Below, in pieces: positions 4,478-60,091 of a stretch of 64,000 nt of DNA. This DNA comes from Amphiura filiformis (lineage: Eukaryota), in assembly GCF_039555335.1 (NCBI RefSeq), contig NC_092647.1, positions 18,820,946 to 18,884,945 on the forward strand, written 5' to 3'. Numbering within the stretch: position 1 is the stretch's first letter; every line of letters begins with the position of its first letter. The notes beneath the pieces were generated by a model. That model searched no databases, had not been told where the DNA came from, and was given only the letters and a program-made list of their open reading frames with translations. The translations under genes were made by a program, and so were the position numbers.

Positions 4478-4720
4478 AACCCCAACCCACTAACCCTAAC
4501 CCTAACCCACTAACACTAACCCTAACCCATTAACCCTAACCCACTAACCCTAACCCCAACCCACTAACCCTAACCCTAGTAACCCACTAACCCTAACCCC
4601 AACCCACTAACACTAACCCCAACCCACTAACACTAACCCTAACCCACTAACCTCAACCGTAACCCTAACTCATTAACCCTAACACTAACCCACTAACCCT
4701 AACCGTAATGTAACATTGCC
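4478..4720 (-). repeat. interstitial telomere-like array (TTAGGG and variants on the minus strand), about 240 bp
   Basis: CCCTAACCCTAACCCACTAAC... repeated. A higher-order AACCCACTAACCCTAACCCTA variant is visible. Confidence 0.85.
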
Positions 4721-8090: not shown

Positions 8091-8532
8091 TCAAGATTTT
8101 GAGTTGAAACATTTGTGCACAAATTGTGTTTTATGTTACATGTCCTGTTATTGCATTTAGCGCAGCACAATATCTAGGTCTCATCATCAGCGTACCCGAA
8201 ACTGAGTACATGGCAGTCAAATGCAACCCACAGCCACAGACACGACTTCAAGTGTATGAGAGCCTATCAAACATGTATCCAACTTCAAATATCTGGGATC
8301 AATGATGGCCTCTAGTACCAGCGACCGATCCAGACGGAAAGCAGTTCCTTTGACTGGTTTTAGGAAGTATTGGAAGAAGTCCATCAATCTCCATCATAAT
8401 TAAAATCAGGCTTTTCAACATCAACCATACATGCTATTGCCTCAGTAGTTGTGGATCGTAGAGAAACTTAGTAGTCGTCTGCTCCGAATTAAAGTGAAAT
8501 GAAAGAATGCCAAATGTCTCAAAGACTAAATT
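8090..8532 (+). repeat. intergenic spacer segment B of the tandem ZF duplication unit (copies at 28750-28912, 30810-31060, 49795-49930)
   Basis: GTTGAAACATTTGTGCACAAATTGTGTTTTATGTTACAT... and CCAACTTCAAATATCTGGGAT... blocks recur at the listed sites. Confidence 0.5.
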
Positions 8533-26828: not shown

Positions 26829-27245
26829 GGCGTCTCTTTGGCATGACTTCTCTCATGTGTTTTCAAGTTACCTGACTTTGTGAAGCCTTTGTTGCAGTAT
26901 TGACATATGTAAGGCTTCATTTTTGTATGAATTCGCTCACGTGATTTCAAGTTACCTAACTGTATGAAGCCTTTGTTGTAGTATTGACATTATGTAAGGT
27001 TTCTCTTTGGTATGGATACATTCATGTCTTTTCAAGCTACCTGACTGTGTGAAGCCTATGTTGCAGTATTGGCATAGGTAAGGCTTCTCTTTAGTATGAA
27101 CTTGCTCATGTGTTTTGAAGTCACTAGACTGTGTGAAGCATTTGCTGCAGTATTGGCATATGTAAAGCTTCCCTTTGGCATGGAGTAGTTCATGTGTTTT
27201 CAACTTACCTGACTTTGTGAAGCCTTTGTTGCAGTATCGGCACAT
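26702..27245 (-). CDS. ZF gene C distal fingers (two ORF pieces, 26952-27245 and 26702-26950, separated by 1-bp indels), ending inside the MITE-a
   Basis: Finger motifs. The C-terminus ..HAKETPQQTQHVSDN.. is encoded by the MITE-a TIR. Confidence 0.6.
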
Positions 27246-28555
27246 GTAAGGCTTCTCTTTGTATGAATTCGTTCATGTGTTTTTAAGTTCCCAGATTGTG
27301 TGAAACCTCTGTTGCAGTATTGGCATATGAAAGGCTTCTCTTTGGTATGGATACGTTCATGCCTTTTCAAGTGACAATAATGTGAGAAGCCTTTGTTGCA
27401 GTATTGACATGGGTACGGCTTCCCTTTTGTATGAATTTGTTCATGTGTTTTCAAGTCACTAGACTGTGTGAAGCATTTGTTGCAGTATTGGCATATGTTA
27501 AGCTTTCCTTTGGCATGAATTAGTTCATGATATTTCAAGCTGCTTGATTGTGTGAAGCTTTTGTTACAGTATTGACATACATATGGCTTTTTGTTGGTAT
27601 GGATTCGTTCATGTGTTTTCAAGTTACTTGACTGTGTGAATCCTTTGTTGCAGTATTGGCATACATATGGCTTTTTGTTGGTATGGATTCGTTCATGTGT
27701 TTTCAAGTTACTTGACCCTGCGAAGCCTTTATTGCAATATTGGCATATGAAAGGCTTCTCTTTCGTATGAATTCGTTCATGTACTTTCAGGTCATCAGAC
27801 CGTGCGAAGCCTTTGTTGCAGTATTGGCATAGGTAAGGCGTTTCTTTCATATGAATTCGTTCATGTCTTTTCAATTCACCAGACTGTGTGAAGCCTTTGT
27901 TGCAGTATTGGCATATGTAAGGTTTCTCTTTCGTATGAATTCGTTCATGTCTTTTTAAGTTCCCAGAGTGTGTGAAGCCTTTGTTGCAGTATTGGCATAT
28001 GAAAGGCGTCTCTTTCGTATGAATTCGTTCATGTGTTTTCAAGTTACCATACTGTGCGAAGCCTTTGTTGCAGTATTGACATATATAAAGCTTCTCTTTG
28101 GTGTGGATTCGTTCGTGTGTTTTCAAGCTACTTGACCGTGTGAAGCCTTTGTTGCGGTATTGGCATATGAAAGGCTTCTCTTTCATATTATTTTGTTCAT
28201 GTACGTTTACCTTACTGATTGAAAACGGTTTGTCATAATATTGACCTTGGTAACATAACAGTTGCGAATCGTCCTCCTCATTCGTTTTTTTGCTTGTTGA
28301 GTCATTACCACGTGTCCATTGGTCAAGAGATGGTGACGTCAGAAAACCATCGCTTCTGCTATCGGATGTATTTATATTTCTGCTTGGAATGGGTATCAAC
28401 TTCTTCTTATAGTCATACCAATATGCACGAATCCACAGCTCATGATGACGTAGATGACGCAGATATCGATGATTATTATTAAAGAACCTTCGTCTGCAAT
28501 ATTTACACACGTGAGGCATCAGGTATTCCCATTCTCGTGGTCTTCTTAGAGGCAT
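27200..28555 (-). CDS. ZF gene C: N-terminal domain plus about 11 fingers
   Basis: ORF of 451 aa. ATG at 28553-28555 preceded by TTTCAG. Confidence 0.8.
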   Translation of the reverse strand: MPLRRPREWEYLMPHVCKYCRRRFFNNNHRYLRHLRHHELWIRAYWYDYKKKLIPIPSRNINTSDSRSDGFLTSPSLDQWTRGNDSTSKKTNEEDDSQLLCYQGQYYDKPFSISKVNVHEQNNMKEKPFICQYRNKGFTRSSSLKTHERIHTKEKLYICQYCNKGFAQYGNLKTHERIHTKETPFICQYCNKGFTHSGNLKRHERIHTKEKPYICQYCNKGFTQSGELKRHERIHMKETPYLCQYCNKGFARSDDLKVHERIHTKEKPFICQYCNKGFAGSSNLKTHERIHTNKKPYVCQYCNKGFTQSSNLKTHERIHTNKKPYVCQYCNKSFTQSSSLKYHELIHAKGKLNICQYCNKCFTQSSDLKTHEQIHTKGKPYPCQYCNKGFSHYCHLKRHERIHTKEKPFICQYCNRGFTQSGNLKTHERIHTKRSLTCADTATKASQSQVS

Positions 28556-28750
28556 TCCTGAAATGAATGGTAAAAAGTAATCTGTCTAATTAAGGCAACA
28601 TTACGAATCTGAGAAAACTATTTCATAATGGGTTACTTGTTAGTTCTACTTTCACGGGACTGTTCCAATTGTATGCCTCCTTGTAGGCGTTTCTGATACA
28701 AATTATATGCGAGGCTATTCTTTACTTGATTTGGAAGTCTATAAAGGCAT
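28556..28750 (-). promoter_or_regulatory. conserved upstream block of gene C
   Basis: About 90% identical to 7524-7700. Confidence 0.4.
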
Positions 28751-28914
28751 ATTCAAGATTTTGAGTTGAAACATTTTTGCACAAATTGTGTTTTATGTTA
28801 CATATACTGTTATTGCATTTAGCGCAGCACAACATCTAGGTCTCATCATCAGCGTACCCACAACTGAGTACATGACAGTCAAATGCAACCCACAGCCACA
28901 GACACGACTTCAAT

Positions 28915-31900: not shown

Positions 31901-32470
31901 GCGTACATTGGAAACGACACCCCCTGGTTCAAAAGCCGTTGTTGACTGTGGTATCTCCGCACAATTATGCAGGCATCTGGACTCTAAATCTTCTCCGTTA
32001 TCCTTGTCCTTTTCATCAGAATCCGCTTCAAAGTTCTCAATCACAACCTAACAGAAAAACTAAGCGCTGGAAAAAGCGTGGAAAAAAAGGTGGTCGCAAA
32101 TCACGACTACAGAACCTTGAACCAAACCCCATCCCCGTGCTCATAACTACTAGACTGGTTTCACCCACCCATTGTCAGTCTTCTGTAAATCACAAGTTCT
32201 TGCGTTCATTTCAAAGACAAAATGATAGAAATGTTAACATTCGACAATGGAACGCACGCTCAGTCCGTAAGAAAACTGTGGCAATTAGCGAAAACATCAT
32301 TGAAAACGATGTTGACATTTTCGTGATCACCGAAACTTGGCTTGCTGAAGACGACCCAGTAGTGATAGGCGAACTGCTACCCCCCGGGTATTCATTTATG
32401 AATTTCCCCAGAAAAAGTAGTGAGCATGGCGGTATTGGTATTGTTCACAAAACCCAACTGAGCCTTCAGA

Positions 32471-33940
32471 GTGCTCCTACATGCCAGTGTAATTGTCAAA
32501 AAAACTGGACTTAGAATAATATCAATCTACCGTCCCCCTCCGTCCAAAGAAAATGGGTTTAAAACGAGTGATTACCTGTGTGAATTTGAAGCTTTCTTAG
32601 ATGAAATTTGTCTCACTCCGACAAAAACCATTCTCCTTGGGGATTACAACATTCACGTTGATCTACCTTCTAAGCCAGAGGTGTCTAGGTTTCTGGATGC
32701 CCTCACCGTCAATGGTCTTCACCAGCATGTTGATTCACCAACACATAAGGATGGTCACATACTGGACCTCGTCATATCACGTCCTGAAGATGACCTAGTG
32801 GACAAGTGTTGTGTTTTGCCAGGCTTAGGATCTGATCACAAGTTGGTATACTGGACCTTAAATTGTATTAAACCAGCGCCACTCAGGGTTACGTCAATTG
32901 TTAGGAACATTAAAAACATTGACGCGATTTTATTTGCAAATGATCTTAAATCTGAAGTTGGAGGTCTTGATGCTCGGGGTCCTGTCGATGAGATGCTCGA
33001 TAAATTTGATTTATCCGTGTCTGGTGTGTTCGACGTTCATGCACCTCCTCGACAACGATCTCGGAGTATCAAACCTCGGCTTCCTTGGTGTAATGAAGAC
33101 ATTAATGTTGCCAGACGTGAAAGGAGAAGGATTGAGCGTAAATGGCGCAAATCCAAGAGTAATGTAGATCTTGAAGCCTATGTTGAGCAAACTAAATATG
33201 TCAGTAAATTAATCCAGTGTGCTAAGGAAGTATACTATAATGATATTCTTGAGTCTGCCGATACTAAGAACATGTACTTTACCTTAAACAAACTGTTGAG
33301 TAAGAACACTAGACAACTGCCTGATGCAGAATGTATGATTGAATTGTGCAATTCATTTGCAAGGTACTTTACTCAAAAGGTAATTAAGATCAGAAATGAA
33401 CGCGATGCAACACCTGTTACGTATAATGCTGCCCATACTATACTTGATGAGAGTTCTAACCTTAACACACCATCTTTTTGTGAGTTTAGGCATGTTTCTG
33501 CTGATGATATCAAGAAAATTGTGCTCGCAACACCTAACAAGACTAGTTCTTTAGACACAATTCCTATGGAGTTGCTCAAAGATAATATCAATGTTTTGAT
33601 CCAACCTCTTGCCAGTATATCGTTCATCAATCACTCAGTAGCGGAGTATTTCCTTCAAAACTTCGTGAGGCGGTGGTATCTCCCATCCTCAAAAAATCCA
33701 CGCTTGACAAAAACATCCTTAAGAACTACCGCCCTGTCTCAAATATCAGGTACCTCTCGAAAATCATGGAGAAAATTGCTTGTGCTCAAATCAAAGATCA
33801 TCTCAGTACCAATTGCCTTCTTGAGGATTTCCAATCTGCGTACAGACAGCAGCACAGCACGGAGACGGCTTTACTACGAGTCGAAACGGATATCCTGTGT
33901 GCTTTGGACAATTATAAGGCTGTGGCTGTTGTGTTGTTAG
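32471..33940 (+). CDS. LINE-2 endonuclease and RT N-terminal segment
   Basis: See element evidence. Confidence 0.65.
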   Translation: MLLHASVIVKKTGLRIISIYRPPPSKENGFKTSDYLCEFEAFLDEICLTPTKTILLGDYNIHVDLPSKPEVSRFLDALTVNGLHQHVDSPTHKDGHILDLVISRPEDDLVDKCCVLPGLGSDHKLVYWTLNCIKPAPLRVTSIVRNIKNIDAILFANDLKSEVGGLDARGPVDEMLDKFDLSVSGVFDVHAPPRQRSRSIKPRLPWCNEDINVARRERRRIERKWRKSKSNVDLEAYVEQTKYVSKLIQCAKEVYYNDILESADTKNMYFTLNKLLSKNTRQLPDAECMIELCNSFARYFTQKVIKIRNERDATPVTYNAAHTILDESSNLNTPSFCEFRHVSADDIKKIVLATPNKTSSLDTIPMELLKDNINVLIQPLASISFINHSVAEYFLQNFVRRWYLPSSKNPRLTKTSLRTTALSQISGTSRKSWRKLLVLKSKIISVPIAFLRISNLRTDSSTARRRLYYESKRISCVLWTIIRLWLLCC

Positions 33941-34461
33941 ACCTATCCGCAGCCTTCGACACTGTAGATCATCAGATACTGTTGAAACGGCTTTCGAATA
34001 CTTTTGGTATTTCTGGAACAGTCCTGAATTGGATAAGATCCTATCTCAAGGACCGCTCATTCCGGGTGTGTCTGGGGGATAATTCGTCCATTAATCACAC
34101 GCTTGACTTCGGCCTCCCACAAGGATCTGTTGTTGGACCTTTATTCTTCAGCATGTATACTTATCATATCGGTGCCATCATACGGAATCATAACATCTGC
34201 TACCATATGTATGCCGATGATGTCCAACTTTATCTGACGTTCAACCCAAAAGTGGATGGAGACGGTCATCGAGCAGTGACCAGATTGGCAGCCTGCATTG
34301 ATGAAATTAGTGCATGGATGACTCAGAATAAACTGAAACTTAACAATGATAAGCCGTTACATTACCACAGAAAGTTGCCATCATCTTGTCCGTGCTCTGA
34401 TTCTGTCCCGGCTCGACTACGCCAATGCTCTGATGTTTGGGATTTCGGCCAAAGACCGTAA
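33673..34461 (+). CDS. LINE-2 RT core
   Basis: FDTVDH, YADDVQLY. Confidence 0.7.
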   Translation: MVSPILKKSTLDKNILKNYRPVSNIRYLSKIMEKIACAQIKDHLSTNCLLEDFQSAYRQQHSTETALLRVETDILCALDNYKAVAVVLLDLSAAFDTVDHQILLKRLSNTFGISGTVLNWIRSYLKDRSFRVCLGDNSSINHTLDFGLPQGSVVGPLFFSMYTYHIGAIIRNHNICYHMYADDVQLYLTFNPKVDGDGHRAVTRLAACIDEISAWMTQNKLKLNNDKPLHYHRKLPSSCPCSDSVPARLRQCSDVWDFGQRP

Positions 34462-34855
34462 GCAGCTGCAGAAAGTCCAAAACAGGGCCGCAAGAATTGT
34501 TTTTAGAGCCGAAAGACTGCATCCATCAGCACCGCTACTCAAACACCTTCATTGGCTGCCAATTGAACAGCGAATCAAGTTCAAAATCTTGCTTATCACC
34601 TTCAAAGGAGTCCACGGCCTCATTCCACCTTACCTCGCCGAATTTCTTCAGAGATATTCATGCGGTAGGCCAAACTTGCGTTCCAGTGATGACAGTCTCC
34701 TTTTACGCAATCCACGAACCTACAGAAACGACGGTGACAAGGCCTTCTACGCTGCAGCCCCCCGACTATGGAACTCCATACCTGCTTCCCTTCGTCATTC
34801 CTCCTCTGTCCTTGCTTTTAGGAAGGGTCTTAAGACCTATTTATTCCCCGGTTGA
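34346..34855 (+). CDS. LINE-2 RT C-terminal conserved domain
   Basis: RLDYANALMFG..LHWLPIEQRIKFKIL. Confidence 0.65.
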   Translation: MISRYITTESCHHLVRALILSRLDYANALMFGISAKDRKQLQKVQNRAARIVFRAERLHPSAPLLKHLHWLPIEQRIKFKILLITFKGVHGLIPPYLAEFLQRYSCGRPNLRSSDDSLLLRNPRTYRNDGDKAFYAAAPRLWNSIPASLRHSSSVLAFRKGLKTYLFPG

Positions 34856-35425
34856 TACCACCGCCTTATTCACGCCCCGTAAAATTGTGTTTTGTGGAGT
34901 TTTTATATGTATTTTGTTTGTTTTTATCCATGAACTGCTATGCCGGACTGGCATCTTTTATAACATGTGTTCATGCAGCATGCTCCTCTGCTTTAATCAA
35001 TTATTGTGTGTTTTTGATGTATTTTGCTTGCGTACATTTAAATTTGCTATGTTTTTGTAAAACATTTTTGCATGTTGGTTGCTACTGTTCTTCCAAATTG
35101 AGCTGGTCACGCTATGTATTTTATCATGTAATTGTTGTGTATATCGTGCTGCCTATGAGTCTTTCATATGTAATAGGCCCTCCAGCCACATAGCGGGAGT
35201 TCCATATTGAGCTGTTTTAAAATTGTATAATTTCCTGCTCTTTTAAATAATGAGCTGGTCTCGCTAAGTATTTTTAACTTTTTATCGTATTTCTTGCTAA
35301 ATTATTGGGTTTTTGTTTTCTTGCCATATGTAGTGCTATTTTTGTTGTTTTTATAATGTATTGTATTGTAAAGCGCTTTGTACATGAAAAGGCGCTTAAT
35401 AAATGATGCTTATTATTATATTATT

Positions 35426-37250
35426 ATTATCTCTAATTCATAACTCTGGCAAAAATTATTACGATTATCTAAGTGAACCATGCCAAAACAGTATATTTCT
35501 GAAACCAATAGTTGAATCAGAGATCTTGAAAATAATCAACAAATTCAACCAGAATAAAAGCGCAGGTCATGACGACATAGGAAACTTCGTTGTAAAAAAA
35601 ACTTGCTCAACCTCTTACAGCAATCTTTAATTTGTCTTTGTCAACAGGATATGTTCCTACCCAATTAAAATTAGCTAAGATAATCCCTATCTATAAAAAA
35701 GATGATGCCGAGATATTATCAAATTACAGACCTATATCACTTCTGCCGGTTTTCTCCAAAATCCTTGAAAGATTGATCTTTAATAGAAGTGTTGAATTTA
35801 TTAATAATAATAACATTCTCAATGATAAACAATTTGGATTTAGAGCCAATCATTCCACTCAAATGGCAATTATGCATCTGGTTGATAAGATAAATAATGC
35901 AGTAGAAAAAATGATGATACTACTATAGGAGTGTTTCTAGACCTATCAAAAGCTTTCGACACTATTGACCATAGTATTCTACTTCATAAATTAGAACATT
36001 TTGGATTCAGAGGAATTGCTTATGACTGGTTCAAGAGCTATTTAAGTGATAGAAAACAATAGAAAACAACACTTCAATAATAAAAATTCCAAATATAAAA
36101 GTATAATTTGCGGAGTCCCTCAAGGCTCAATATTAGGTCCTTTACTATTTATATTGTACATAAATGATATAACGAATACATCGACTATATTAGACTTTGT
36201 ATTGTTTGCTGATGATACGACAATTTGCTAATCAAATGTCATTAATAAATAAAGAGTTATCCGAAGTGAGTAACTGGTTTAAAGCAAACAAACTTTCTGT
36301 AAATGCTAGTAAAACTAATTACATGATTATGGGTACCCCTAGAATGACTTCGATAAATAATTCACAAGAAAACAGAGATATTACTTTGGATGGTACAAAC
36401 TTGCAAAGGGTAACCGAAACCAAATTTTTAGGTGTAATTATCGATGAAAATCTCACATGGAAAAACCATATCATCGGAATCTCAAAAACAATCTCACGGA
36501 ATATAGGTATGATAAACAAGTTGAAATTTTTTATACCTGGGCGTGTTTTGCACACGCTTTATTGTACGCTTGTCTTGCTTTATATTAATTATGGTATACT
36601 TACATGGGGGAATGCATGTAAAACATATCTTGATCAAATACATTTGCTCTAAAAATGGGCCATGAGAACCATTTCAAATAGCCATTATCGAGGCCATTCT
36701 GGACCACTATTTCATAAATTCAATATGCTCAATGTATATGATATATTCAAACTAGAACTAGGTGTATACATGTATAAATATTCTATTAAACAACTGCCAT
36801 GTTCATTTGACAGTTTCTTTCTAAAACGATCCGATATTCATAGCTATCACACAAGAAACAGTAATAGTATAATCAAACAAGAAACAAGTAAGTATTCACT
36901 GGTCATTCAATCTGGACTACCGGCCCACTGTTATGGAATTCCCTGAACGATAACCTTAAAGTAGCAAACTCAATCAAACATTTTCGAAACAAATATAAAA
37001 CACAGCTAATCTCATTTTACAACTAGTTCTTGGAGCCCCGTTTTTGTTCTTGTGTGATAGGCTTAATATACTCTGTTTGTTTGTTGTTGTATTAATTTAG
37101 TTCTGTAAGGGGATGGTCAATGCTGGCCTTAATGGCCTTTCGATCATCTCCTCCATAATTGTCTTGTTTTATTTTTATGATGTTGAATTTCTTTGTATTT
37201 TGTTGTTTTTTATTATGGAAATAAAGATTCATTCATTCATTCATTTGTAT
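35426..37250 (+). mobile_element. 5'-truncated copy of the LINE-1 family (LINE-3), RT region only, several frameshifts, (CATT)4 tail; inserted directly after LINE-2
   Basis: KSAGHDDI, LAKIIPIYKK, CGVPQGSILGPLLFILYINDI (identical peptide to LINE-1 at 15550), LSVNASKTNYMIMG. Confidence 0.65.
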
Positions 37251-37254
37251 GACT

Positions 37255-38170
37255 CCAGACTTGGTCTTCACTCAGGTCCACCAGGCTGAAAGTACTAATT
37301 CTGTTGGTTCAACTAGACCAGACGATAAACAAAACAGAGAACCGTAAAAAGGAACACCGAAATTACCATGCTGCACATTTATGAGAATAAACTGGGTTTG
37401 CTGCAACCATGTGTAAATTGTTTGCTTTCGTTTGCAATACACTATAACAAAAAATTTAACATGCGCATCTACAATATCACATATGGTTCAACTGCAATAA
37501 GTTTAAGTGAACTTACTTGGAAGTGAGCTTGGAAGCTCTCGGATATGACCAGTTAAACGTTTCAGTTGTAGACTGCTCACTGCAGTAATCCTGAAATTGA
37601 CAATTCGCTGAGCTCGAGGCTGAGCTTCGTGTGCAGTTCCGGGGTGCAGTTAACATAAAAAGATTCTTCTAAAGCTACTGGATACGGTGCTTTTAAAATA
37701 CCACGTCCCTGTAAGCTCCTGTATGCACGAGAGTGAGCAATAATTATACCCGGGGGGGCACTCCAACTTTGGAGGTGACGCGTATGTAGGGCAGTTAAGA
37801 CACCATTTTTCAGCGGCGCTGTCACCCAAAGACCCCATATTTTTTTACGAACACATGCTCTGTCACCCGAAGACCCCTATTTTTCCATTTGATCTGTCAC
37901 CCAAAGACCCTTACAAGTTCAATTTGAACAGCAACTTTCATTTATCACTGATTTTGCCAAAAATCATACTCTCACCCAATGACCCCATATTTTTGACATT
38001 TTGCTCTCACCGAGCCCTACACCTATATCCATTTCATATTGAAGTGCCCCCAGGAATTATACGTTATCTGGCATTTTATAATCAACGCGTCCGAAGGTCA
38101 ATCGATGTGCATACACGATCCTGCAGATAGAAGTGGCGTGTATTTGGTTTGAAGATGTCCGTATTCAGCA
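37255..38170 (+). repeat. spacer segment A copy interrupted by a nested MITE-b
   Basis: 37255-37749 plus 38054-38170 is collinear with 9780-10330 and 50160-50720. Confidence 0.55.
37742..38061. mobile_element. MITE-b copy 2 (element 37750-38053, 304 bp) with 8-bp TSD AATTATAC
   Basis: TSD at 37742-37749 and 38054-38061. The uninterrupted target AATAATTATACGTTATCTG is present in the paralogous spacer at 50620. Confidence 0.7.
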
Positions 38171-38805
38171 TGATATTAATATTCTATAGAATTACGATCC
38201 AAGTCTCTTATACTTATTCTTTAAAATTGATGGTTCAATGCAGTGGTACCCCGTGGACATAGTAGTGAAGTGGGATATATTCATAAATTGTTTTAACCTA
38301 TTGCTATGGTAGTTAATCCTGTTAGATCATCACTTCTACGACGAAAACCCGGACGAAATTTTGTTTATTCGAGTCGCCTGCCAGGTTAGTCTCGCGGCCA
38401 GACTGTATGTGGCTATCACGAACATACAGTCTGGGAAACTGAAGGATCTACGTGATTGTGATTGGACAGTCGATTCTGAGTGTCAAGTCACGCAATTGAT
38501 ATAACATCGTTCGCAATTGGTCAAGATACCATGACGTAATTTAACCCCGGAAGCCGTTCGTCAGCTGGCTGCAGTGTATTACGGGATTTCCTGGAACTGT
38601 TTACGGTTATGTTTACGAGGATTTTATGTAAACAAACAAGGTGTTAAACATGAACAAAAGAAAGTATAATTAAAATGCTGTGTGGCGATCCGAGTGACAC
38701 TTTATGGATACAATTTGTATGGATTTACCGTGACCGGCGCGGCCGCCAGCTGAGGCACGATCGCGACAGTGCAGAGACAATACTGGCAGTTTTGTGCTGA
38801 TCTAA

Positions 38806-39278
38806 GGGGTGGTGCAATAATTATGTGTACCCCGGGGTGAATTCTCAAAATGGTCTGCCAAAATCGCTTGCCCCCCTTTGGCCGTGCCAAAAACCTTTTC
38901 CCCCCTTTCGACATGCCAAAAACCTTTGCCCCCCCCTTTTGACGTGCCAAAAATCTTTGCCCCCCTTACACATGCAAGATTTTGGGGAACCCGAATTTAA
39001 AACCTTAAATTGTCTTAACATATATTGCGAGCGCAGCGAGCAGGAAATTTTGCATATTTGAACGTGTTCGTAACGTTTTCCTACGCCTTTTAGGGCGTAA
39101 TATAGAAACGGTGCCCAAAATATCTGTGCCAAAAATTGCTTGCCCCCCCTTTCGACCTGCCAAAATCGCTTGACCCCCCTTTCGACCTGCCAAAAATGCT
39201 TGCCCCCCTTTTGGCCTGCCAAAAATCTTGCCCCCCTATAATTCACCCCGGGGTACACATATAATTATTGCACCACCC
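38806..39278. mobile_element. MITE-c (473 bp): TIRs of about 35 bp, GGGGTGGTGCAATAATTATGTGTACCCCGGGGTGAATT, TAA flanks, two arms each carrying 4 direct 25-bp subrepeats (TGCCAAAAATCGCTTGCCCCCCTTTCGACC)
   Basis: Read directly. TAA at 38803-38805 and 39279-39281. Confidence 0.65.
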
Positions 39279-39877
39279 TAAGAAAGCTTAAAAGTGACGT
39301 GAGTATATTTATATTTAATTAAATAATTAGGTGGCTGGCATTTTCTTCGGAAGGGGGTGGGTCTCAAATATACTTGGGGGGGGGTCATACAATTTTTAGA
39401 CCAAAAATAGGGGGGTTATAATTTTTTAACACCCAAAATAGGGGGTTTGTAGAATTATTAAGGGCTGGCGACTAAAAATTTTCACGTGCTGCGTGCGCAT
39501 TCTTTAACTTCACAATCAAAATGTGCATACAATCTATAGCTATATAATGCAAATTTTTTATGCACTTCACGCGTCTTCATCGCTCTTAGCCTTTGGCGCA
39601 CTCCGCTTTAGTTCCGGCAATGAATGATTTGTCTTGAGTGCGTGTAGGTGGAAGGGGTGGGGGTGGGGTTGGTCATAAACATTTTTGACCCAAGATAAGG
39701 GGGTTGTTAAAAAGTTTTGGCCGCGATAGGGGGGTCATAAAAAATTGACTCTGGTCACTGACATATTTGGGACCCCCTTGTGAAGAAAATGCCAGCCCCT
39801 TATACTAGGTGCTTTACATGAATTGAATCCTACAGTCTGAGGGCAGATGACACACATTCGATGGGTGTAAGGTGCTT

Positions 39878-39998
39878 GCATGGAAGGTCATTAGTTCAAA
39901 TCATCATCCACTGACCTCCAGACTGGCGCTCCAGAAGACATGCAAATGCATTTGCATGTCTTCTGGAGCATGTCTGGAGGATGATTTGAACTGATGAC
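39878..39998. repeat. 120-bp near-perfect palindrome centred on CATGCAAATGCATTTGCATG
   Basis: GGAAGGTCATTAGTTCAAATCATCATCC..CTCCAGAAGACATGCAAATGCATTTGCATGTCTTCTGGAG..GGATGATTTGAACTGATGACCTTCC. Confidence 0.7.
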
Positions 39999-40015
39999 CT
40001 TCCGTGCAATAATTA

Positions 40016-40342
40016 GGGGCTGTGCAATAATTATGAGCCGGGGGGAGGGTAAAATTTCCGAACGGTTCGCCAAAAATTGCTTGCCCCACCCTCTCTCAAC
40101 CTGCCAAAAATTATTCGCCCCCCCCTTGCGCATGGCCGCATGCCAAATTTTTGGGATCCTAATTTACAAGATACATGTTGTGAGCGCAGCAAGCAGGAAT
40201 ATTTGCGTATTTAAGCATTTCTGTACTGTTTTCCTAAGCCTTTTTAGAGCGTTTTATTTAAAAGGCGCCACATGAATGTGTGCCAAAAATTCCTAGCACC
40301 CCCAATTTTACCCTCTAGGGCTCATAATTATTGCACAGCCCC
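40016..40342. mobile_element. MITE-c copy (327 bp): TIR GGGGCTGTGCAATAATTATGAGCC, TTA TSD (40013-40015 and 40343-40345)
   Basis: Read directly. The internal core GTGAGCGCAGCAAGCAGGAATATTTGCGTATTTAAGC is shared with 38990-39060. Confidence 0.7.
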
Positions 40343-42049
40343 TTATATGTACCGCAGGGTGGTGAATTGGGGGGGGGGGGCAAAGTTTTTTTGGTAGGCC
40401 TGTTCTATGGGGCTGACCTACTGAGATTTTTCCAAAATTGGGAAACAATTTAAGTTTACAAATGAATGCCACTGAGTAAACCAAATGTTGGGAGGGTAAT
40501 TTTTAAAGTTTGACTACCTATAAAAATGTACCTACAGTCCACCTGATCTGCAACCAGTATGTGACCAGTCACAGTGTATCATTTTCAATTTACCAAAAAC
40601 ATTGTTTGATTTTAAACAATAAAAATATTTTATTCTTTTTTTTTTAAAATTTACAGGTTGAGGTGGTAAGCCGAGTGGTTGACCAAGCCTGGGAAACTTA
40701 CAGAAGCCACCTGGGAGTCAGCAATATGAGGTTCCACATTCTGCGTTATTAGTCCGATGTACACTGGTGTGGCAACAAGCACTCCACAAACAACTTTTAA
40801 TTTAACACATTCCAATTTAGAAACTAAATTTATGCAGTGAACTGTGGCAACAAATGAATAAGGATTGATATTATGAAGCTTTGTTAGACTGGATAGACAG
40901 AAGCTGAGAATCATGTTTATTCAGTGATTCTCAAATCTCCAATGAGTGCACCACTGTGAACTCTTTAAATTACACCATAGTACCACTTTCAGTGCACCTT
41001 AATAGCATGTAATTGGTACAAAATTCACAGCGAAATCATCTGGCCATTCTTACATCTGTTCACAGCTCAACTTATTGTCAGAAAAATGCAAGTATTTTCA
41101 TACCCTATGAAATACTTCCACTAACTCATTGTGTGGCAATAGATGGCCTTGAGGTCTACATGAAATGTGTAATTTCCACCTCTTGATAGGAAATTTAGTT
41201 TCATCTCTTTTAAAAAGGGTCAAGGTTCACTTGTTTCATTTAGACTTTAAATGTGTTTATGTGTTACTGGTAACATATGTCCTGGAATTAACTCTCAGTT
41301 GGTCAGCCAAATATTTTATAGTGAATTGTGATCACATGTACATGCTGTTGAGGTCTGTCAGGAACTAGTAAGGACATTGATGAGAGATGAATGACTATAA
41401 TCTGACTTATAAATGACCATGGTATATAAAAAGTACATTTTATTCAACCTCTTTTCATGGTATCTGAAGATTTACTTTTCATACACTATTGAAAGAAACT
41501 ATAATTATATTTGATAACACAAGCACTGGTAATACTGTTGGTAATTACAGATGGCATTTAATAACAATCATGACTTTGTATTTCATGACTTTGTATGTGT
41601 AACAATGGAAAGAAAGAATAATAATTACAAGCATAATTATTTTAGTTTGTTTGAATTTGCTTCGGTGTTAATACCTGGGGAACCACTCAGAATAAATGTG
41701 TTGTCATCATCGAGCAAAAATTTGCAGGAAAGGGTACTCTTTTCATGCATCATCGCGGTCTGCAATTTAATATACAATCCTACAAACCTATGGGACAAAA
41801 ATATTTTTGCAGGCAAAAATAAAAATCATGAAAGATCATGGGTTTTATTTTTGCCTGCAAAAATGTTTTTGTCCCGTAGGCTGTAAATGTTTGAAACTGT
41901 GAATACAAGAAACTGCAAGTTGAAGGGGTTGGAATAAGCGATAGCCCGATAGCCATGCCTACCAAATTTTCCATTGGGCTATTGGGTTTTATCTCCATGT
42001 GGCCCGTTGGGCTATTTAAAAAACATTTAATTAATTTATTTAGTTATTT

Positions 42050-47294: not shown

Positions 47295-47400
47295 AACATT
47301 TACGTAAACATAGATTAGGGGCTCTGCGATAATAATGAACCTCAGAGCAAAATTTCCAAAAGGACGTGCCAAAAACCGCTTCTTCCCCCCTCCCTCTCGG
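47295..47400. mobile_element. MITE-c fragment
   Basis: GGGGCTCTGCGATAATAATGAACCTCAGAGCAAAATTTCCAAAAGGACGTGCCAAAAACCGCTTCTTCCCCCC. Confidence 0.4.
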
Positions 47401-48021
47401 CCTGTCACATACATCCCCATGAGCACCACCAAACATTTTATGGAATTTTGACAGGTTTCATGTGTAAAATATCCGGTCCTCTTATGTGCTTTCGGCATGT
47501 TGTAAGATATTCATTTAATTTATCATCTTGTATTTGGAAAATTTAAATAACTAATGGGCATGTGAAAGTTTATGCTTGACCACGCCCATCTGATGATTTC
47601 TCGTTCAAGATAGGTATAATACTATAACGACATTAACACATCCAGTTAACATGGTTACCATGTACTTAGTATGCGGGCTTCTTTGTGCGAGCAATGATTC
47701 CGGCCGTTATGGCAAAAGAGCTCCTCGCCATCTGGGATCGAAACTATTGTAAATAAATTTTAGCAGTGAGAGCTGCGAACAAATTCTAAACAATTTTCTT
47801 GTGCATATCATAAAATAACAACAACAAAAAAAAGTCGGTTTCCAGCTTTAACCCGAATTTGCCGAGTGCAGATAAATAAACATTTATTTCCGCAAGAGGA
47901 CCAGTCTATCATGCGTCGAAATTGAAATCAATCCTAATTTTAAGTGTAAGACATCCCTTTTGGATGAATTAGTCTATTTTATTATCATGCTATCTGACCT
48001 TGCGAAGCCTTCATTGCAGTA

Positions 48022-48352: not shown

Positions 48353-49357
48353 TTACAGTATTGACATAATTATGTAAGGCTTCTCCTTGGTATGGGTTCG
48401 TTCATGTCTTTTCAAGTGACCAGACGTTGTGAAGCTTTTGTTGCAGAGTTGGCATAAGTAAGGCTCCTCTCTCGTATGAATTCGTTCATGTGCTTTCAAG
48501 CTACATGCCTGTGTGAATCCTTTGTTGCAGAATTGGCAAGTATAAGGTTTTTCATTGGTATGAATTCTTTCATGTCTTTTCAAGCTATATGACAGTGTGA
48601 AACCTTTATTGCAGTATTGGCATTTGTAAGGCGTCTCTTTGGTATGAATTCTTTCATGTGCTTTCAATCCACTAGACTGTGTGAAGCCTTTGTTGCAGTA
48701 TTGACATGTGAAAGGCTTCTCTTTGGTATGAATTCGTTCATGTGTTTTCAAGTGACAAGACTGTGTGAACCCTTTGTTACAGTATTGGCATATGTAAGGC
48801 TTCTCTTTCGTATGAATTCGTTCATGTCTTTTCAAGCAACTTGACTGTGTGAAGCATTTGCGGCAGTATTGGCATATGTAAGGCTTCTCTTTGGTATGTG
48901 TTCGAGTGTGTTCTTTCAAGTCACATGACTGTGTGAAGCCTTTTTTACAGTATAAACATATGTAAGGCTTATCTTTGATGTGGGTTCGTTCATGTACGTT
49001 TATATTACTCACGATTGGAAACGTTTTTTCATAACGTTCACCTTGGTAATATTCCAATTGCGAATCGTTCTCATTCATTTCTTTGCTTATTGAGTCATTT
49101 CCACGTGTCCAATGGTTTAGAGATGGTGATGTCAGAAAACCATCTGTTCTGCTATCATCGGCGATGCTTATCTTACTGCTTGGTATTGGTATCGGTATCA
49201 ACTTCTTCTTATAGTCATACCAGTATGCACGAATCCACAGCTCATGATGACGCAGATGACGAAGATATCGATGATTATTATTAAAGAACCTTCGTCTGCA
49301 ATATTTACACACGTGAGGCATTAGATGGTCCCATTCTCTTGGTCTTCTTAGAGGCAT
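48353..49357 (-). CDS. ZF gene E: N-terminal domain plus about 7 fingers
   Basis: ORF of 334 aa. ATG at 49355-49357 preceded by TTTCAG. Confidence 0.8.
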   Translation of the reverse strand: MPLRRPREWDHLMPHVCKYCRRRFFNNNHRYLRHLRHHELWIRAYWYDYKKKLIPIPIPSSKISIADDSRTDGFLTSPSLNHWTRGNDSISKEMNENDSQLEYYQGERYEKTFPIVSNINVHERTHIKDKPYICLYCKKGFTQSCDLKEHTRTHTKEKPYICQYCRKCFTQSSCLKRHERIHTKEKPYICQYCNKGFTQSCHLKTHERIHTKEKPFTCQYCNKGFTQSSGLKAHERIHTKETPYKCQYCNKGFTLSYSLKRHERIHTNEKPYTCQFCNKGFTQACSLKAHERIHTREEPYLCQLCNKSFTTSGHLKRHERTHTKEKPYIIMSIL

Positions 49358-49439
49358 TCCTGAAATGAATGATGAATAGCAATCTGTCTAATTAAGACAA
49401 CATAACGAATCTGAGAAAACCATTTCATTATCGGGATTA
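49358..49439 (-). promoter_or_regulatory. conserved upstream block of gene E, truncated by a MITE-c insertion
   Basis: Homologous to 7524-7610. Confidence 0.4.
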
Positions 49440-49729
49440 CTTGTTAGTTCTACTTCCATGGAAGGAACTTTTGGCAAGCCGAGGGGTTGGGGGAAAGCGA
49501 TTTTTGGCACACATTCTTGGGGCGCCTTTTAAATAAAATCCTCTAAAAAGACTTGGGAAAACCGTACGGAAACTCTTAAATATGCAAATTTTCCTGCTCG
49601 CTGCGCTTGAAACATGTATATAGACCATTTAAGGTTTGCAAATTGGGATCCCAAAAATTTGGCATGGCGATTTTTGGCGAGCTGTTCGGAAATTAACCCC
49701 CGGGAGGCTCATAATTATTGCACAGCCCC
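49440..49729. mobile_element. MITE-c copy in opposite orientation, left TIR missing, right TIR GGCTCATAATTATTGCACAGCCCC followed by TAA
   Basis: Collinear with the reverse complement of 40016-40342. Confidence 0.6.
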
Positions 49730-49794: not shown

Positions 49795-50720
49795 CAACTT
49801 GAAATAATTATATTCCATGCTGAGGTCACTTGCGGACTGTTTTTAGGAAGTTAGTGCTCCTGCGGAGATGTCCAATAATCTCCATCTCAACCACAATCAG
49901 GGTTCTTAACACCACCTGTATAACAGTGCTTTCATGGCTGTGAATCCTACGGTGTTCTTCATGTATTTATAAAAAAGCACACTCTGTCAGTTAAATTATA
50001 ACGAACTTCTGAACAGAGCTGGATTCAACATCTCGCCCAAAACTCAATAGCCACTGGAGCATTTGCAAAAAGAGGTCAATTTTGCTATGTTTATAATGAC
50101 AATCTAAAGTGACTATTATATACATTCATGTTTTTGCGTAAATGTTTTTAAACAACATTAGGATTCCAGAGTGGGTTCTCACTCAGGTCCACCAGGCTGA
50201 AAGAAGTAATTCTGTTGGGTCAACTAGACCACGCGATATATACAAAACAGAGAACCGTTAAAAAGAACACCGAAATTACCATGCTGCGCCTTATGAGAAT
50301 ATTAAACTGGGATTCCTGCCACCATGTATTGGTTGCTTTCGTTTGCAATACACTTTAACATGCGCATCCACAATATGGTTCAATTGCAACAAGTTTAAGT
50401 GTTCTTACTTGGAAGCGGGCTTGGAGGTTCTTGGATATATCCCGTTAAACGTTTCACTTGTAGTAATCCTGAAATTGGCGATTATGATTATTCGTTGAGG
50501 TTCGAGTGCAGTTAATATAAAAAGGTACTTCCAAAGCTGAATAAAGTGGTTCTACGTGTGCTTTTAAAATACCACGTCCCGGTCCCTATGATGCTACATG
50601 AGAGTGAACAATAATTATACGTTATCTGCTTTTTATCAACGCGTCCAAAGGTCGATCGATGTGTACACGATGTAGATCCTGCAGATAAAAGTAGCATGTA
50701 TTTGGATTGAAGATGTCTGT
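49795..50720 (+). repeat. spacer segments B+A copy
   Basis: Homologous to 8278-8520 and 9590-10330. Confidence 0.55.
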
Positions 50721-51354
50721 ATTAGATAAATGTCAACCTTGAGCGCAGAACTTTTGTAATCACAGCCCCATGAAATTTGGCACGGATGTAGAGGTTTCAA
50801 CCTTCAAACTCAAATAGAGAGCTTTTTAAAAATATTTGCTCAGTTTTTGAAGAAAAAGGTGATTTTCCCAATTTTTGGCTGGAAAATACGTAATTTGGAT
50901 TTTAACGATCTCGATACCCTAATTAATATAGATTTTAAAAGTTTATAACCATAGTAGCCATACCAAAATTCATGAATTTATGAATTGGAAGTAAAAATCC
51001 TGTCCGCAATGTGATCTACCTAAAAATCCAAGATGGCCGCCGTTTCTATGTCAACCATATGCGCGGACATTTTCTTCCGCCCATTCAAAATAGTTTCACC
51101 TGAGTACCATGAAAATAGGACCAATATTGCTTTTCCCTCGCAAGCTCTACCTACAACATAGAAAATAATATAAAATAGATTAGAAAATATTGATGAAATA
51201 GCAAGTTTATATTCAAAGGAATCCAAACTAATACAAGAAATATTAGGGGGACAATTTATCTTTATTGAGCTTAATTTTCATCATAAAGTAGCTTCACAGA
51301 GAAATAGGATACGCAAAAAATGCATTGCTAGTGTAAAAATGTGTTTTGTAAACA

Positions 51355-51500
51355 TATTACATAAACATAGATTCGGGGCTGTGCAATATTATTGAGCCTC
51401 CAGGGTCAAAATTTCAAAACGGCGTGCCAAAATACTCTTCCCACTCTCGGCCTGCCAAAAAAATGCTTCCCTTCCCCACTCGGCCTGCCCAAAATATCCT
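51355..51500. mobile_element. MITE-c fragment
   Basis: GGGGCTGTGCAATATTATTGAGCCTCCAGGG..CGGCCTGCCAAAAAAATGCTTCCC subrepeats. Confidence 0.4.
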
Positions 51501-52855
51501 TGCACCCCTCCACCATGTCCACCGTTTGCATATTTAAAAGTTGTCGTAAGATAGCATTATATTAAAAGGTACCCCTTAAATATGTATCAAAAGTTGCTTG
51601 CCACCAACACTTTTGACCTGACAAAAATGGCTTCTTCCTCACTTTTTGGACAGCACCCATCTGAGGATTTCTCGTTCAAATTAGCCACAATGCCTCAGTA
51701 GGACATTAACACATTTACACAAATGTTTGTTCATGGCATTACAATTTTTCAGCTGAGGTTAGAATTAACTCTGATTACAATGGTTGATATACTTATGTAT
51801 GCTAACTTCGCACAGTTATTCTGGCTGCAGTTCCGAAAGAGGAACTCGCTGTCAGGGACGCGTATTTACTTTCTGCAACTATAATGGGCCGCAATAGCTT
51901 ATTAATACACATATGACTCATATATATGTTAATTGCATACACTAATTTAAATGTACTGAATATTCATTAGCAATGTACTGAATATTCATTAGCAAAAGAA
52001 TTAACATGCTGATTAATCCATCATTAACCATGCATGCCCACTACCTCTCCCATATGAGATATGCATCCCGACCCTCCCTACCATCCTGACCATCCCTAGC
52101 ACGATAACCATCCATGCCCACTACCCCTCCCATATGAGATATGCACCAAAACCACTTTGAACAATCGCAAGTGAGAGGTACAACCTCCAAAGTAAAAACA
52201 ACCATAGACTAATTACTATAACTATACAGACCAATCACCAACAGCATAATCTGTTATAGAGAGCCAATCGTTCCATGAAGCACGCAAACGAAAACGCTAC
52301 ATCCAATCTGTGCCTGTTACCGTGTGGCCCGCGATATTTTTGTCGTACATCATTTTGGTAAATTTTGGATTTGTTTCCGTTTTTTATAATTTAACACGGA
52401 ATAAAGCAAAATTTATTGAAAAACAAGATTTACTGAAAAATCAACTGATTTTTCCGAATGTGTTGCAAAAACAAAATCGCATCCCGGGCCCCATGTATTC
52501 AGTTTCAAAGCACTAAACTGTACCATGTGTATGAGCTCTACACGTCTTGCTGTATAAAACCTATGAATTGGAGGTCTTGCTGATTTGAAGCTGGTTGAGT
52601 CTTGTCTGAGACAGAATCAGAAGCAAGCTATAAATTAAATGAATTACGATTTAGTACAGTTGGGTCTGAAGAGAAAGTAAATGATCTCGCTTGCAAAAAC
52701 GACCGAAGCATATCGATATCGATAACCTTCTTGCCTTTCAACAAGGCTTTGCCTCACACCACTCCACGCCATACATAAATTCTGCCAGTCACATTTCCCC
52801 AATATGAAATTTTTTTAAAGTAAAATTTTACTTTTAATTTTACTTCATTAAAGTT

Positions 52856-56494: not shown

Positions 56495-57173
56495 AAAACG
56501 TTTTCGACATTATTCGCAAAAGGTTATAAAAGGTTGTCAGAAAACGTTTAAATGTCGGGTTATATAAAGGGCATATTAAGGGTATAAAACGTTTTCATAA
56601 CATTGAAAATCATTTTTTGATAATCTACTGCTCAGCAAACAAAAATATTTTACAGAAAACGTTTAAATGTCGGGTTATATAAAGGGTATAAAAACGTTTT
56701 AATAACATTCCAAAAACATTTTTGAAAACTTGATACAAAACATTCTAAACAGAATGTTATTTTGGGAGTTGAAAAATATTTTGCGAAAAATGTTTGCCCA
56801 AAATATTTGCAATAACGTTTTGAAAACGTTTTCATGACCTTTATATAACCCGACATTTAAATGTTATTAAAACGTTTTGAAAAAAACATTTTAAGAACAT
56901 TTCTGTGTTTGCTGGATGCAAATATTTTAACATAATGTTATTTAAGTGTTGACAAAATATTTGGCAAAAATGTTTGCAAAAAAGTTTACAATAACATTTT
57001 GAAAACATTTTAAAAATATTGTGGTAGTGTGTTTTCATACAAAACGTTTTAAAACGTTTTCATGACCTTTATATAACCCGACATTTTAATGTTATTAAAA
57101 CGTTTTTATGTAAACCAAAAACCAAAATATAACTTATTAAAAACGTTTTTAAAACGTTTTTGTGTTTGCTGGG
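56483..57173. mobile_element. composite MITE-a insertion #2 (691 bp), AT duplication at 56481-56482 and 57174-57175
   Basis: Same four-part internal structure, about 92% identical to 5568-6259. Perfect TIRs CCCAGCAAACAC/GTGTTTGCTGGG. Confidence 0.7.
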
Positions 57174-58642
57174 ATGTAAGGCGTCTCTTTGGTATGAATT
57201 CGTTCATGTATTTTCAAGTTATATGACCGTATGAAGCATTTATTACAATATTGGCATATGTAAGGCGTCTCTTTGGCATGAGTTTGTTCATGTACTTTCA
57301 AGTTACCTGACTTTGTGAAGCCTTTTTTACAGTATTGGCATATGTAAGGCTTCTCTTTGGTATGGATTCGTTCATGTTCTTTCAAGTGACCTGACCGTGG
57401 GAAGCCTTTATTACAATATTGACATATGTAAGGCTTCTCTTTCGTATGAATTCGTTCATGTGTTTTCAAATGACATAACTGTGTGAAGCCTTTGTTGCAG
57501 TATTGGCATATGTAAGGCGTCTTATTGGTATGAATTCGTTCATGTGATTTCAAGTGGCCAGACGTTGTGAAGCCTTTATTACAATATTGACATATGTATG
57601 GCGTCTCTTTGGTATGGATTCGTTCATGTGTTTTCAAGGGACTTGACTGTGTGAAGCCCTTATTACAGTATTGACATATGTAAGGCTTCTCTTTCGTATG
57701 AATTCGTTCATGTGTTTTCAAATGACATAACTGTGTGAAGCCTTTGTTGCAGTATTGGCATATGTAAGGCGTCTTATTGGTATGAATTCGTTCATGTGAT
57801 TTCAAGTGGCCAGACGTTGTGAAGCCTTTATTACAATATTGGCATATGTATGTCGTCTCTTTGGTATGGATTCGTTCATGTGTTTTCAAGTGACTTGACT
57901 GTGTGAAGCCCTTATTACAGTATTGACATATGTAAGGCTTCTCTTTCGTATGAATTCGTTCATGTGTTTTCAAATTACATAACTGTGTGAAGCCTTTGTT
58001 GCAGCGTTTGCATAGGTAAGGCCTCTCTTTGGTATGATTTAGTTCATGATTTTTCAAGCTATGTACATATGGAAACCCTTTATTGCAAAACTGACATAGG
58101 TACGGCGTCTCCTTGGTATGAATTCGTTCATGTCTTTTCAAGTTACCTGACTGTGTGAAGCCTTTTTTACAGTATTGACATATGTAAGGCTTCTCCTTGG
58201 TATGGATTCGTTCATGTACTTTCAAGTTACTTAACTGTGTGAAGCCTTTATTACAGTATTGACATATGTAAGGCTTCTCGGTTCGTTCATGTACTTTTAC
58301 CTTACTCCTGGTTGGAAACATTGTCTCATAATATTCACCTTGGTAAAATACCAATTGCGAATCGTTCTCCTTCGTTTGTTTGCTTGATGGGTCATTTTCA
58401 CCTGTCCATTGGTCAAGAAATGGTAACGTCAGAAAACCGCCTTTTCTAATGGCATCGGAGATGTTTATATTTCTGCTTGGAGAGGGTATCATCAACTTCT
58501 TCTTATACCAGTATGCTCGAATCCACAGCTCATGACGACGTAGATGACACAGATATCGATGTGTATTATTAAAGAACCTTCTGCAATATTTACACACGTG
58601 AGGCATCAAGCACTGCCATTCTCGTGATCCTCTTGGAGGCAT
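57149..58642 (-). CDS. ZF gene G: divergent N-terminal domain (MPPRGSREWQCLMPHVCKYCRRFFNNTHRYLCHLRRH..) plus 13 fingers. The stop is provided by the MITE-a.
   Basis: ORF of 497 aa. ATG preceded by TTGTTCCAG. Confidence 0.8.
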   Translation of the reverse strand: MPPRGSREWQCLMPHVCKYCRRFFNNTHRYLCHLRRHELWIRAYWYKKKLMIPSPSRNINISDAIRKGGFLTLPFLDQWTGENDPSSKQTKENDSQLVFYQGEYYETMFPTRSKVKVHERTEKPYICQYCNKGFTQLSNLKVHERIHTKEKPYICQYCKKGFTQSGNLKRHERIHTKETPYLCQFCNKGFPYVHSLKNHELNHTKERPYLCKRCNKGFTQLCNLKTHERIHTKEKPYICQYCNKGFTQSSHLKTHERIHTKETTYICQYCNKGFTTSGHLKSHERIHTNKTPYICQYCNKGFTQLCHLKTHERIHTKEKPYICQYCNKGFTQSSPLKTHERIHTKETPYICQYCNKGFTTSGHLKSHERIHTNKTPYICQYCNKGFTQLCHLKTHERIHTKEKPYICQYCNKGFPRSGHLKEHERIHTKEKPYICQYCKKGFTKSGNLKVHEQTHAKETPYICQYCNKCFIRSYNLKIHERIHTKETPYIPANTKTF

Positions 58643-59424: not shown

Positions 59425-60091
59425 TTAAGGGCTGGGGTATGAACGTTTGGACAGTATTTATTTTGGGACATTAGAGCACATCAGACATATCGAATTGCAT
59501 TCTGAATACGAAGAATGTCCTTCTGATATGAAATAATTTTGATTTTTTGAAATTCGCAATTTAATACACATTTTATGGCAAATCATTAAAAATTGATATT
59601 TTTGATATTGAACAGTACTCGAAGTAAACTTTACAAATTTGATGATTTATACTTAAAGTGTATGTAGATGGGATGAAAAGCCGACGATCAATTGAGAATT
59701 TTGACCTTTCGTATTGGAGATATGGATTTTTTCCCCAAAACACCAAAAAAAAGGGTCTTTTGGGACAAAAATCCATATCTTCAATATGAAAGGTCAAAAT
59801 TTTCAATTGACCGTCGGCTTTTCCTCCCAGCTACATACACTTTAAGAATATATCATTAGATTTATATAATTTACTTCGAGGACTGTTATATATCAAAAAT
59901 TTGAAAAATATTAAATTTTCATAATTTGTCATAAAATTTGTATTATATTGTGATTTTCAAAAAATGAAAATTATTTGATTTCAGAAAGACATGCTTCGTA
60001 TTCAGAATGCAATTCGATAGGTCTGAGGTGCTCTCATGTCCCTCAAAAAATACTGTCGAAACGCAATAAACGCTCATTCTAGATCCCTTAA
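59425..60091. mobile_element. second copy of the TTAA-flanked 655-bp foldback element
   Basis: TTAA at 59425-59428 and 60088-60091. About 95% identical to 46583-47237. Confidence 0.7.

Follow-up and report, generated by a model that had tools for sequence, protein, structure and literature searches.

The DNA analysed here is a 64,000-nucleotide stretch of contig NC_092647.1, hereafter the window, with a G+C content of ~36% and the character of eukaryotic, invertebrate-like DNA. [quoted passage not shown] That description is borne out by the terminal inverted repeats (TIRs), by exact 3-bp TWA (TTA or TAA) duplications, by flanks that differ between insertions and by a paralogous empty-site test. 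The Harbinger superfamily is defined by a 3-bp target-site duplication and TIRs of 25-50 bp (PMC9179366). Given the TIRs, the TWA triplet duplication, the small size, the independent insertions and the absence of coding capacity, MITE-c is probably a non-autonomous PIF/Harbinger (Tourist-like) transposon family, with a variable-number repeat array in its interior.

Copies, termini and target sites

BLAST of the window with the copies confined MITE-c sequence to 38.8-51.7 kb, where the following features are found.

38806-39278, plus strand: c1, complete, 473 bp, with TIRs at 38806-38843 and 39240-39278
38803-38805 and 39279-39281: target-site duplication TAA of c1, exact
38856-38967, 38968-39126 and 39127-39237: left unit array, unique core (conserved block at 39027-39059) and right unit array of c1
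40016-40342, plus strand: c2, complete, 327 bp, TIRs 40016-40039 and 40319-40342 (24 nt each, perfect)
40013-40015 and 40343-40345: target-site duplication TTA of c2, exact
40068, 40102 and 40281: starts of the units of c2, with the central block at 40180-40212
49462-49729, minus strand: c3, truncated, left TIR intact (49706-49729), right TIR and about 50 nt missing
47318-47587, plus strand: c4, old and rearranged, paralogue of c5, left flank TTA at 47315-47317
51375-51658, plus strand: c5, about 284 bp, old and degenerate, with flanks TTC (left) and ATC (right) and a right TIR that can hardly be recognised
40346-40415, minus strand: main piece of c6, a c1-type right end and host of the c2 insertion
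40009-40015 and, putatively, 39871-39880 with TAA flank 39868-39870: further pieces of c6

Five members had been recognised previously, and the sixth, c6, the fragment that received c2, had been overlooked. The two members formerly placed at 47295-47400 and 51355-51500 have their real starts at 47318 and 51375, since the preceding 20 bp are shared flank, and they reach to about 47587 and 51658, about 270-285 bp each. The DNA around c4 and c5 is alike on both sides (78-88% identity), which indicates that these copies are one old insertion duplicated together with its surroundings and not two events. With this exception the flanks differ for each insertion, and five independent insertions are present within 13 kb of the window. 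Duplication of a single insertion was also considered for c1 and c5, which both lie ~645 bp after a shared repeat, and was rejected, as neither the flanks nor the DNA in between are related.

The TIR core GGGCTGTGCAATAATTATGAGCC is matched at 40017, at 40319 and 49706 (both on the minus strand) and, with three mismatches, at 51376, and the central block is found at 39027, 40180 and 49578 (the last on the minus strand); shuffled sequences gave an expectation of 0 for either motif. The TIRs open with GGGG(C/T)(T/G)GTGCAATAATTAT and are 24-39 nt long. Those of c2 are perfect over 24 nt and reach ~41 nt with one interruption, and the ends of c1 agree at 37 positions over about 39 nt, with one 2-nt indel. 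The idea that the copies share a TIR core and a central block is thus supported far above shuffles, but not for every member. The TIR of c1 forms a separate subtype, GGGGTGGTGCAATAATTATGTGTACC, and the sole part of the TIR common to c1, c2 and c3 is GTGCAATAATTATG, which is mismatched in the old copies c4 and c5. The central block is present in c1-c3; c4 lacks it and c5 has part of it (GTTTGCATATTTAA). When the DNA was folded as a single strand, pairing was limited to the terminal ~37 nt.

All elements are small (214-473 bp, counting a relative from outside the window that is described below), and MITE-c has no coding capacity. Bacterial-style calling of open reading frames (ORFs) returned two frames inside the elements, one of 137 aa at 38845-39258 on the minus strand and one of 93 aa at 39994-40275 on the plus strand. 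Both are artefacts, because the G-rich strand is poor in stop codons; used as a protein probe, the 137-aa frame of c1 found no homologues and no further copies. A search of the whole window against Rfam gave no match.

The complete copies are flanked by 3-bp TTA or TAA as the sequence-only reading had held, with TAA on both sides of c1 and TTA on both sides of c2. One of the two triplets adjoins seven of the seven well-preserved ends: both ends of c1 and of c2, the left end of c3 (TAA at 49730-32, or TTA in the orientation of the element), and one end each of c4 and c6, that of c6 being a reconstruction. By simple arithmetic, such a flank has a chance of about 0.07 per end at an A+T content of ~64%. 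The clearest case is the nested insertion of c2. The surrounding DNA reads GTGCAATAATTA, then c2, then TTATATGTACCGCAGGGTGGTGAATTGGGGGGGGGGGGCAAAG, and removal of c2 with one TTA leaves GTGCAATAATTATATGTACC, which is colinear with the reverse complement of the right end of c1, that is, of its right TIR. When a small hairpin element is removed as well, the reconstructed c6 aligns to that reverse complement with a score of 48, compared with a maximum of 29 in 300 shuffles. Because this empty-site reconstruction restores the terminal repeat, c2 must have inserted at a TTA inside the TIR of the older, reverse-oriented c6. The flanks of c2 therefore serve as a paralogous empty site in which the 3-bp TTA target duplication is shown directly, a clean proof that is internal to the window.

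The hairpin element itself (39881-40004) has 35-nt arms that are 91% complementary and a perfect inner palindrome of 21 nt. It sits within the terminal bases of c6, possibly with a 4-bp TGCA duplication (39877-39880 and 40005-40008). As it also lies inside c6, three transposons are nested in about 600 bp.

Outside the window, exact-pattern scans with the TIR returned one true relative from metagenome contigs, together with one chance match in GC-rich bacterial DNA. The relative, on contig JAAUXV010122082.1 (L003), is 214 bp long. It consists of three to four same-direction units, without the central core, and has the MITE-c type of TIR (GGGGCGGTGCAATAATTATGTGTACC, imperfect over about 45 nt) at either end. 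The same kind of scan gave 0 and then 1 chance match in viral contigs, and 0 and then 15 chance matches of just 17-22 nt in prokaryotic genomes. Related eukaryotic metagenome contigs (L005-L007), 57 kb in all, yielded no more copies of MITE-c.

Internal units and rival readings

The interior of the elements is built from C-rich units (TGCCAAAAAT..CCCCCC..) whose period was determined as 29-31 bp with Tandem Repeats Finder (TRF), in place of the 25 bp given previously. The unit head TGCCAAAA(A) occurs exclusively in forward orientation, with forward to reverse counts of 9:0 in c1, 4:0 in c2 and 4:0 in c3, which confirms that the subrepeats of the two arms share one orientation. The pattern GCCAAAAA-N3-9-CCCCC has 10 matches against 0.02 expected, all of them within MITE-c elements. 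Counted from typical TGCC/CGCC-AAAA(A) heads, the units (left plus right) number 4+4 in c1, 2+1 in c2, 3+2 in c5 and at least 1+2 in c3. Those of c1 are not cleanly arm-specific, L1 being nearest to R3 and L4 to R4, and the arrays continue head to tail across the core without changing direction. Between the left terminus and the start of the first unit there are 50-54 nt in all copies; in c1, in c2 and in the relative outside the window, the last unit starts 62-65 nt away from the right terminus.

These units would constitute an internal variable-number tandem repeat (VNTR). The simplest account of their shared direction would be a single head-to-tail array between the TIRs, which in most copies is split in two by the unique core of ~160 bp. 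Their number may have been altered by slippage or abortive gap repair, processes documented to change repeat number in PIF/Harbinger elements of Medicago (PMC2213677). The same direction of the units had been put forward as remarkable for a MITE; comparable subterminal arrangements have, in fact, been described (PMC2213677, PMC1636448). Since the outermost units stand at a fixed distance from each terminus, they may in addition be binding sites for an accessory protein.

As to movement, MITE-c inserts at TTA or TAA, duplicating these 3 bp, and on one occasion entered the terminal repeat of an older member. To move, PIF/Harbinger elements need two proteins, one a DDE transposase and the other a DNA-binding protein of Myb/MADF-like type (PMC9710019, PMC9921582). 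For MITE-c, we infer cut-and-paste movement by such a pair of proteins, supplied in trans from an autonomous element elsewhere in the genome; mobilisation in trans stays at this level because no autonomous partner was found.

Whether the units are themselves functional is the subject of the strongest rival reading, which accepts the same transposon and takes the units as binding-site arrays for either the transposase or the Myb/MADF-like protein, with non-equivalent ends and polar assembly of the complex. This reading is possible, though we think it unlikely. It draws on the outermost unit, whose distance from each terminus is constant in all copies and in the other organism's relative, and on the first-unit motif GCCAAAA, which is invariant in five copies that are otherwise 70-85% alike. 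By eye, the unit head GTGCCAAAAATT also resembles the TIR core GTGCAATAATT. Binding of this kind has precedents in the Lemi1 proteins, which bind subterminal motifs of Emigrant (PMC1636448), and in the Myb-like protein of Harbinger3_DR, which binds a 9-bp subterminal motif as cited in PMC9710019. However, unit number varies freely and an arm may carry just one unit, the conservation of the head motif is circular because the units were chosen by that motif, the resemblance to the TIR is short and could be due to chance, and the arrays of binding sites are a proposal from sequence. A narrower proposal holds that the Harbinger accessory (Myb/MADF-like) protein docks at the outermost units, which would give the element two functionally different ends. 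It is suggested by the fixed distance of these units and by the placement of all units on one strand in two organisms, and we regard it as improbable. If true, functional polarity of the ends would be undocumented for the PIF/Harbinger superfamily.

Several points weigh against assigning MITE-c to PIF/Harbinger elements with an internal array. The duplication at c1 can equally be read as 4-bp TAAG, the degenerate right end of c4 and c5 is flanked by ATC, and the flanks of the outside relative are TCA and TTA. A tblastn search of the window and the 57 kb of related contigs, a weak test with an approximate HARBI1 query, yielded no autonomous partner. The evidence base consists of five independent insertions and one outside relative, and the history of the array can be told in two ways: either the core split one array, or the short core-less relative is a deletion derivative.

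Some of these points also bear on membership in a different superfamily that makes 3-bp duplications, such as CACTA/EnSpm, Zator or Academ, for which it can be said that no autonomous partner was identified and that the class is based on target-site duplication and TIR only. Such an origin is improbable, as the flanks are specifically TTA or TAA and not arbitrary triplets, and the termini start with GGGG and not with CACTA. A G-rich start combined with a TWA target is typical of PIF/Harbinger elements, for example mPing.

The copy beside gene E and its surroundings

One copy, c3, adjoins a member of the zinc-finger gene cluster, here called gene E. The cluster comprises the following ORFs, in which a period of 84 bp was found by TRF and the fingers were confirmed by Pfam.

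6234-7523, minus strand: zinc-finger ORF
21055-22839, minus strand: zinc-finger ORF
27200-28555, minus strand: zinc-finger ORF
48353-49357, minus strand: gene E, C2H2 zinc-finger ORF of 334 aa, adjoining c3
57149-58642, minus strand: zinc-finger ORF

All five paralogues share a distinctive N-terminus, MPLRRPREW..HVCKYCRRRFFNNNHRYLRHLRH, for which a collection of 5.8 billion proteins contained just three distant homologues, in metagenome assemblies. The exact product of gene E was absent from the sequence records searched. The sole 5' stretch common to the five (5' regions 7524-8423, 28556-28913 and others) is the ~80-104 bp next to the ATG, a block that terminates in the splice-acceptor-like ttcatttcag/GA and that in gene E corresponds to 49358-49461.

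The sequence of c3 is derived from the element only from about 49462 to 49729, and the gene-proximal TIR is absent. Next to the broken end come the conserved 104 bp that lie 5' of the ATG of gene E (49357), so that c3 covers positions -105 to -372; the copy thus ends about 104 bp from the ATG, where 85 bp had been stated. Farther upstream, -393 to -557 of gene E matches -713 to -900 of paralogue A. The ancestral 5' region is continuous in paralogues A and C, bar a 364-bp insertion (about 7717-8079) that is specific to A and not present in C. From this continuity, the gene-proximal end of c3 and about 250 bp of ancestral DNA appear to have been lost by deletion. The element would have been truncated after its insertion, and the same deletion would have taken the ~250 bp of upstream, possibly intronic, DNA. 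The earlier statement that this copy replaces part of a conserved upstream block is upheld by the paralogue comparison insofar as ancestral upstream DNA has been replaced, but the lost block is shared with A and C only and not with all five genes. Because the 5' block ends like a splice acceptor, the insertion of c3 may lie in an intron rather than in a promoter. If expression has diverged among the zinc-finger paralogues, the 5' deletion of ~250 bp marked by c3 is a candidate cause.

The position of c3 is also the starting point for a regulatory interpretation, in which the element or its arms form a cis-regulatory module, with promoter-like arrays acting on the core or on gene E. One copy does lie 104 bp 5' of the ATG of gene E, and an octamer-like motif, ATTTGCAT, can be read in the core. 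However, the arrays pass through the core one way and do not converge on it, the number of units is not conserved, none of the other copies is positioned near genes, the copy at gene E is a broken remnant, the conserved block beside the ATG looks like the end of an intron, and no RNA family was matched. Altogether, a cis-regulatory role is very improbable. The related description of the arms as promoter-like arrays facing a central core is not supported by any test: unit number varies, and the arrays pass the core in a single direction. Scarcely credible at all is the view that MITE-c is no mobile DNA and merely a set of segmental-duplication relics within the zinc-finger cluster. In its favour, c4 and c5 were indeed duplicated along with their flanks. 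Against it, the flanks of c1, c2, c3 and c6 are unrelated, their TIR ends are precise and their duplications measure 3 bp, c2 breaks up another member precisely at a TTA, and a relative is present in the DNA of a different organism; the nested insertion and the reconstructed empty site already contradict this view.

Two MITE-like elements near c1 and c2 resemble MITE-c in layout. The first, at 39330-39799, has a TTA target-site duplication (39327-39329 and 39800-39802), TIRs reading GG(T/G)GGCTGGCATTTTCTTC, and 31-bp G-rich units (GGGGGGTCATACAATTTTTAGACC...) in both arms, all on one strand. It counts as similar to MITE-c in layout and not as a demonstrated relative: apart from a marginal result for its unit arrays against c1 (4/300 shuffles), the sequence similarity is not significant. 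The second, at 37749-38054, measures 306 bp, with TIRs CCCGGGGGGGCACT and AGTGCCCCCAGG and same-direction units of ~36 bp (CTGTCACCCAAAGACCCCATATTTTT) in both arms. An uninterrupted paralogous site at 50606-50625, supplied by a dispersed repeat of ~560-900 bp, proves that its duplication is the 7-bp AATTATA, which points to a different superfamily. The sequence GAGCAATAATTATA at 37735, which looked like a further TIR, belongs to the flanking DNA of this different element, as the empty paralogue at 50606 shows. Units related to those of the 306-bp element also make up a 60-bp TRF array at 708-822. The occurrence of same-direction units of ~31-36 bp in two other families could point to a process or host factor specific to this genome.

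The dispersed or duplicated ~560-900 bp repeat that provided the empty site is represented by 37248-38165 and 50159-50723, at 75-83% identity, with partial copies at 10242 and 24631. Retroelement ORFs occupy 12961-16370, 19921-21114 and 31939-36652. For a long interspersed nuclear element (LINE) with endonuclease and reverse transcriptase (RT), identity to metagenome homologues reaches 69%, and the best named match of the LINE ORF is from Holothuria leucospilota, at 37%. A second LINE lies at 32-35 kb, and the zinc-finger ORF at 21055-22839 is overlapped at its 3' end by the ORF at 19921-21114, which contains an RT. Many hairpin repeats are scattered across the window. Among them, a 119-bp unit present twice at 2723-2965 (99% identity, each unit a hairpin) and inverted arms of 150-166 nt at 59444-60063 probably represent other MITE or foldback families. 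At 4478-4708, about 230 bp are taken up by an interstitial, degenerate telomere-like array of (AACCCT)n interleaved with AACCCACT.

For annotation, it follows that MITE-c, which is possibly already present in repeat libraries, and at least two neighbouring MITE families need to be masked and not annotated as regulatory arrays or genes.

Comparison with known systems

Foldback elements resemble MITE-c in having arms built from short subrepeats. Their long arms consist of inverted arrays and pair over the whole length, whereas in MITE-c the arrays are direct and complementarity is limited to the terminal ~37 nt, so a foldback identity was rejected. A piggyBac-type MITE, such as CMITE from coral (PMC2872659), was also rejected, as the flanks read cTAA or aTTA before the terminal GGGG and not TTAA; the 60-bp internal consensus of CMITE (PMC2872659) is absent from the window. 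The DTC84/pearl MITEs of bivalves and insects are likewise short and contain an internal tandem array that varies in copy number (PMC3879986). They differ in a putative AA duplication, in very short inverted repeats and in a single central array, made up of no more than five core repeats, with a microsatellite (PMC3879986), and DTC84/pearl-type elements were later linked to Helentrons/DINE-1, with rolling-circle as the likely mechanism (PMC4067079). MITE-c was excluded from this type because it has a TTA/TAA duplication, true TIRs and two arrays around a unique core, with no microsatellite.

Two plant families are comparable in the arrangement of subterminal motifs. The Emigrant MITE of Arabidopsis belongs to the Tc1/mariner-pogo superfamily, which makes a TA target duplication. 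Like MITE-c, Emigrant, compared here together with the pogo-like Lemi1, has subterminal motifs arranged differently at the two ends (PMC1636448): the motifs follow the orientation of the TIR at one end, are reversed at the other, and are bound by the transposase (PMC1636448). Emigrant differs in having two motifs per end, derived from a half-site of the TIR, and binding was shown there (PMC1636448), whereas for MITE-c it would be read from sequence. In the PIF/Harbinger subfamily MtPH-A6-4 of Medicago truncatula, subterminal VNTRs comprise 2 to 35 units and in some elements nearly fill the interior, and nested insertions and deletion derivatives occur (PMC2213677). Its units are 60 bp long with a triplicated 12-bp motif (PMC2213677), compared with 29-31 bp in MITE-c. 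Moreover, repeats present at both ends lie in opposite orientation in MtPH-A6-4 (PMC2213677) and share one orientation in MITE-c, which makes the layout of MITE-c a variant.

The family as a whole is most like the Tourist-like MITEs represented by mPing of rice, which are small and non-coding, have short G-rich TIRs and a 3-bp TTA/TAA duplication, and are mobilised in trans, as MITE-c presumably is. Internal sequences of mPing-type MITEs modulate mobility (PMC9921582). MITE-c is set apart from them by its arrays of 29-31 bp units and by its animal-like host. Same-direction subterminal units are a modest variant on this plan, one that could help to ask how Harbinger accessory proteins read the ends of a transposon.

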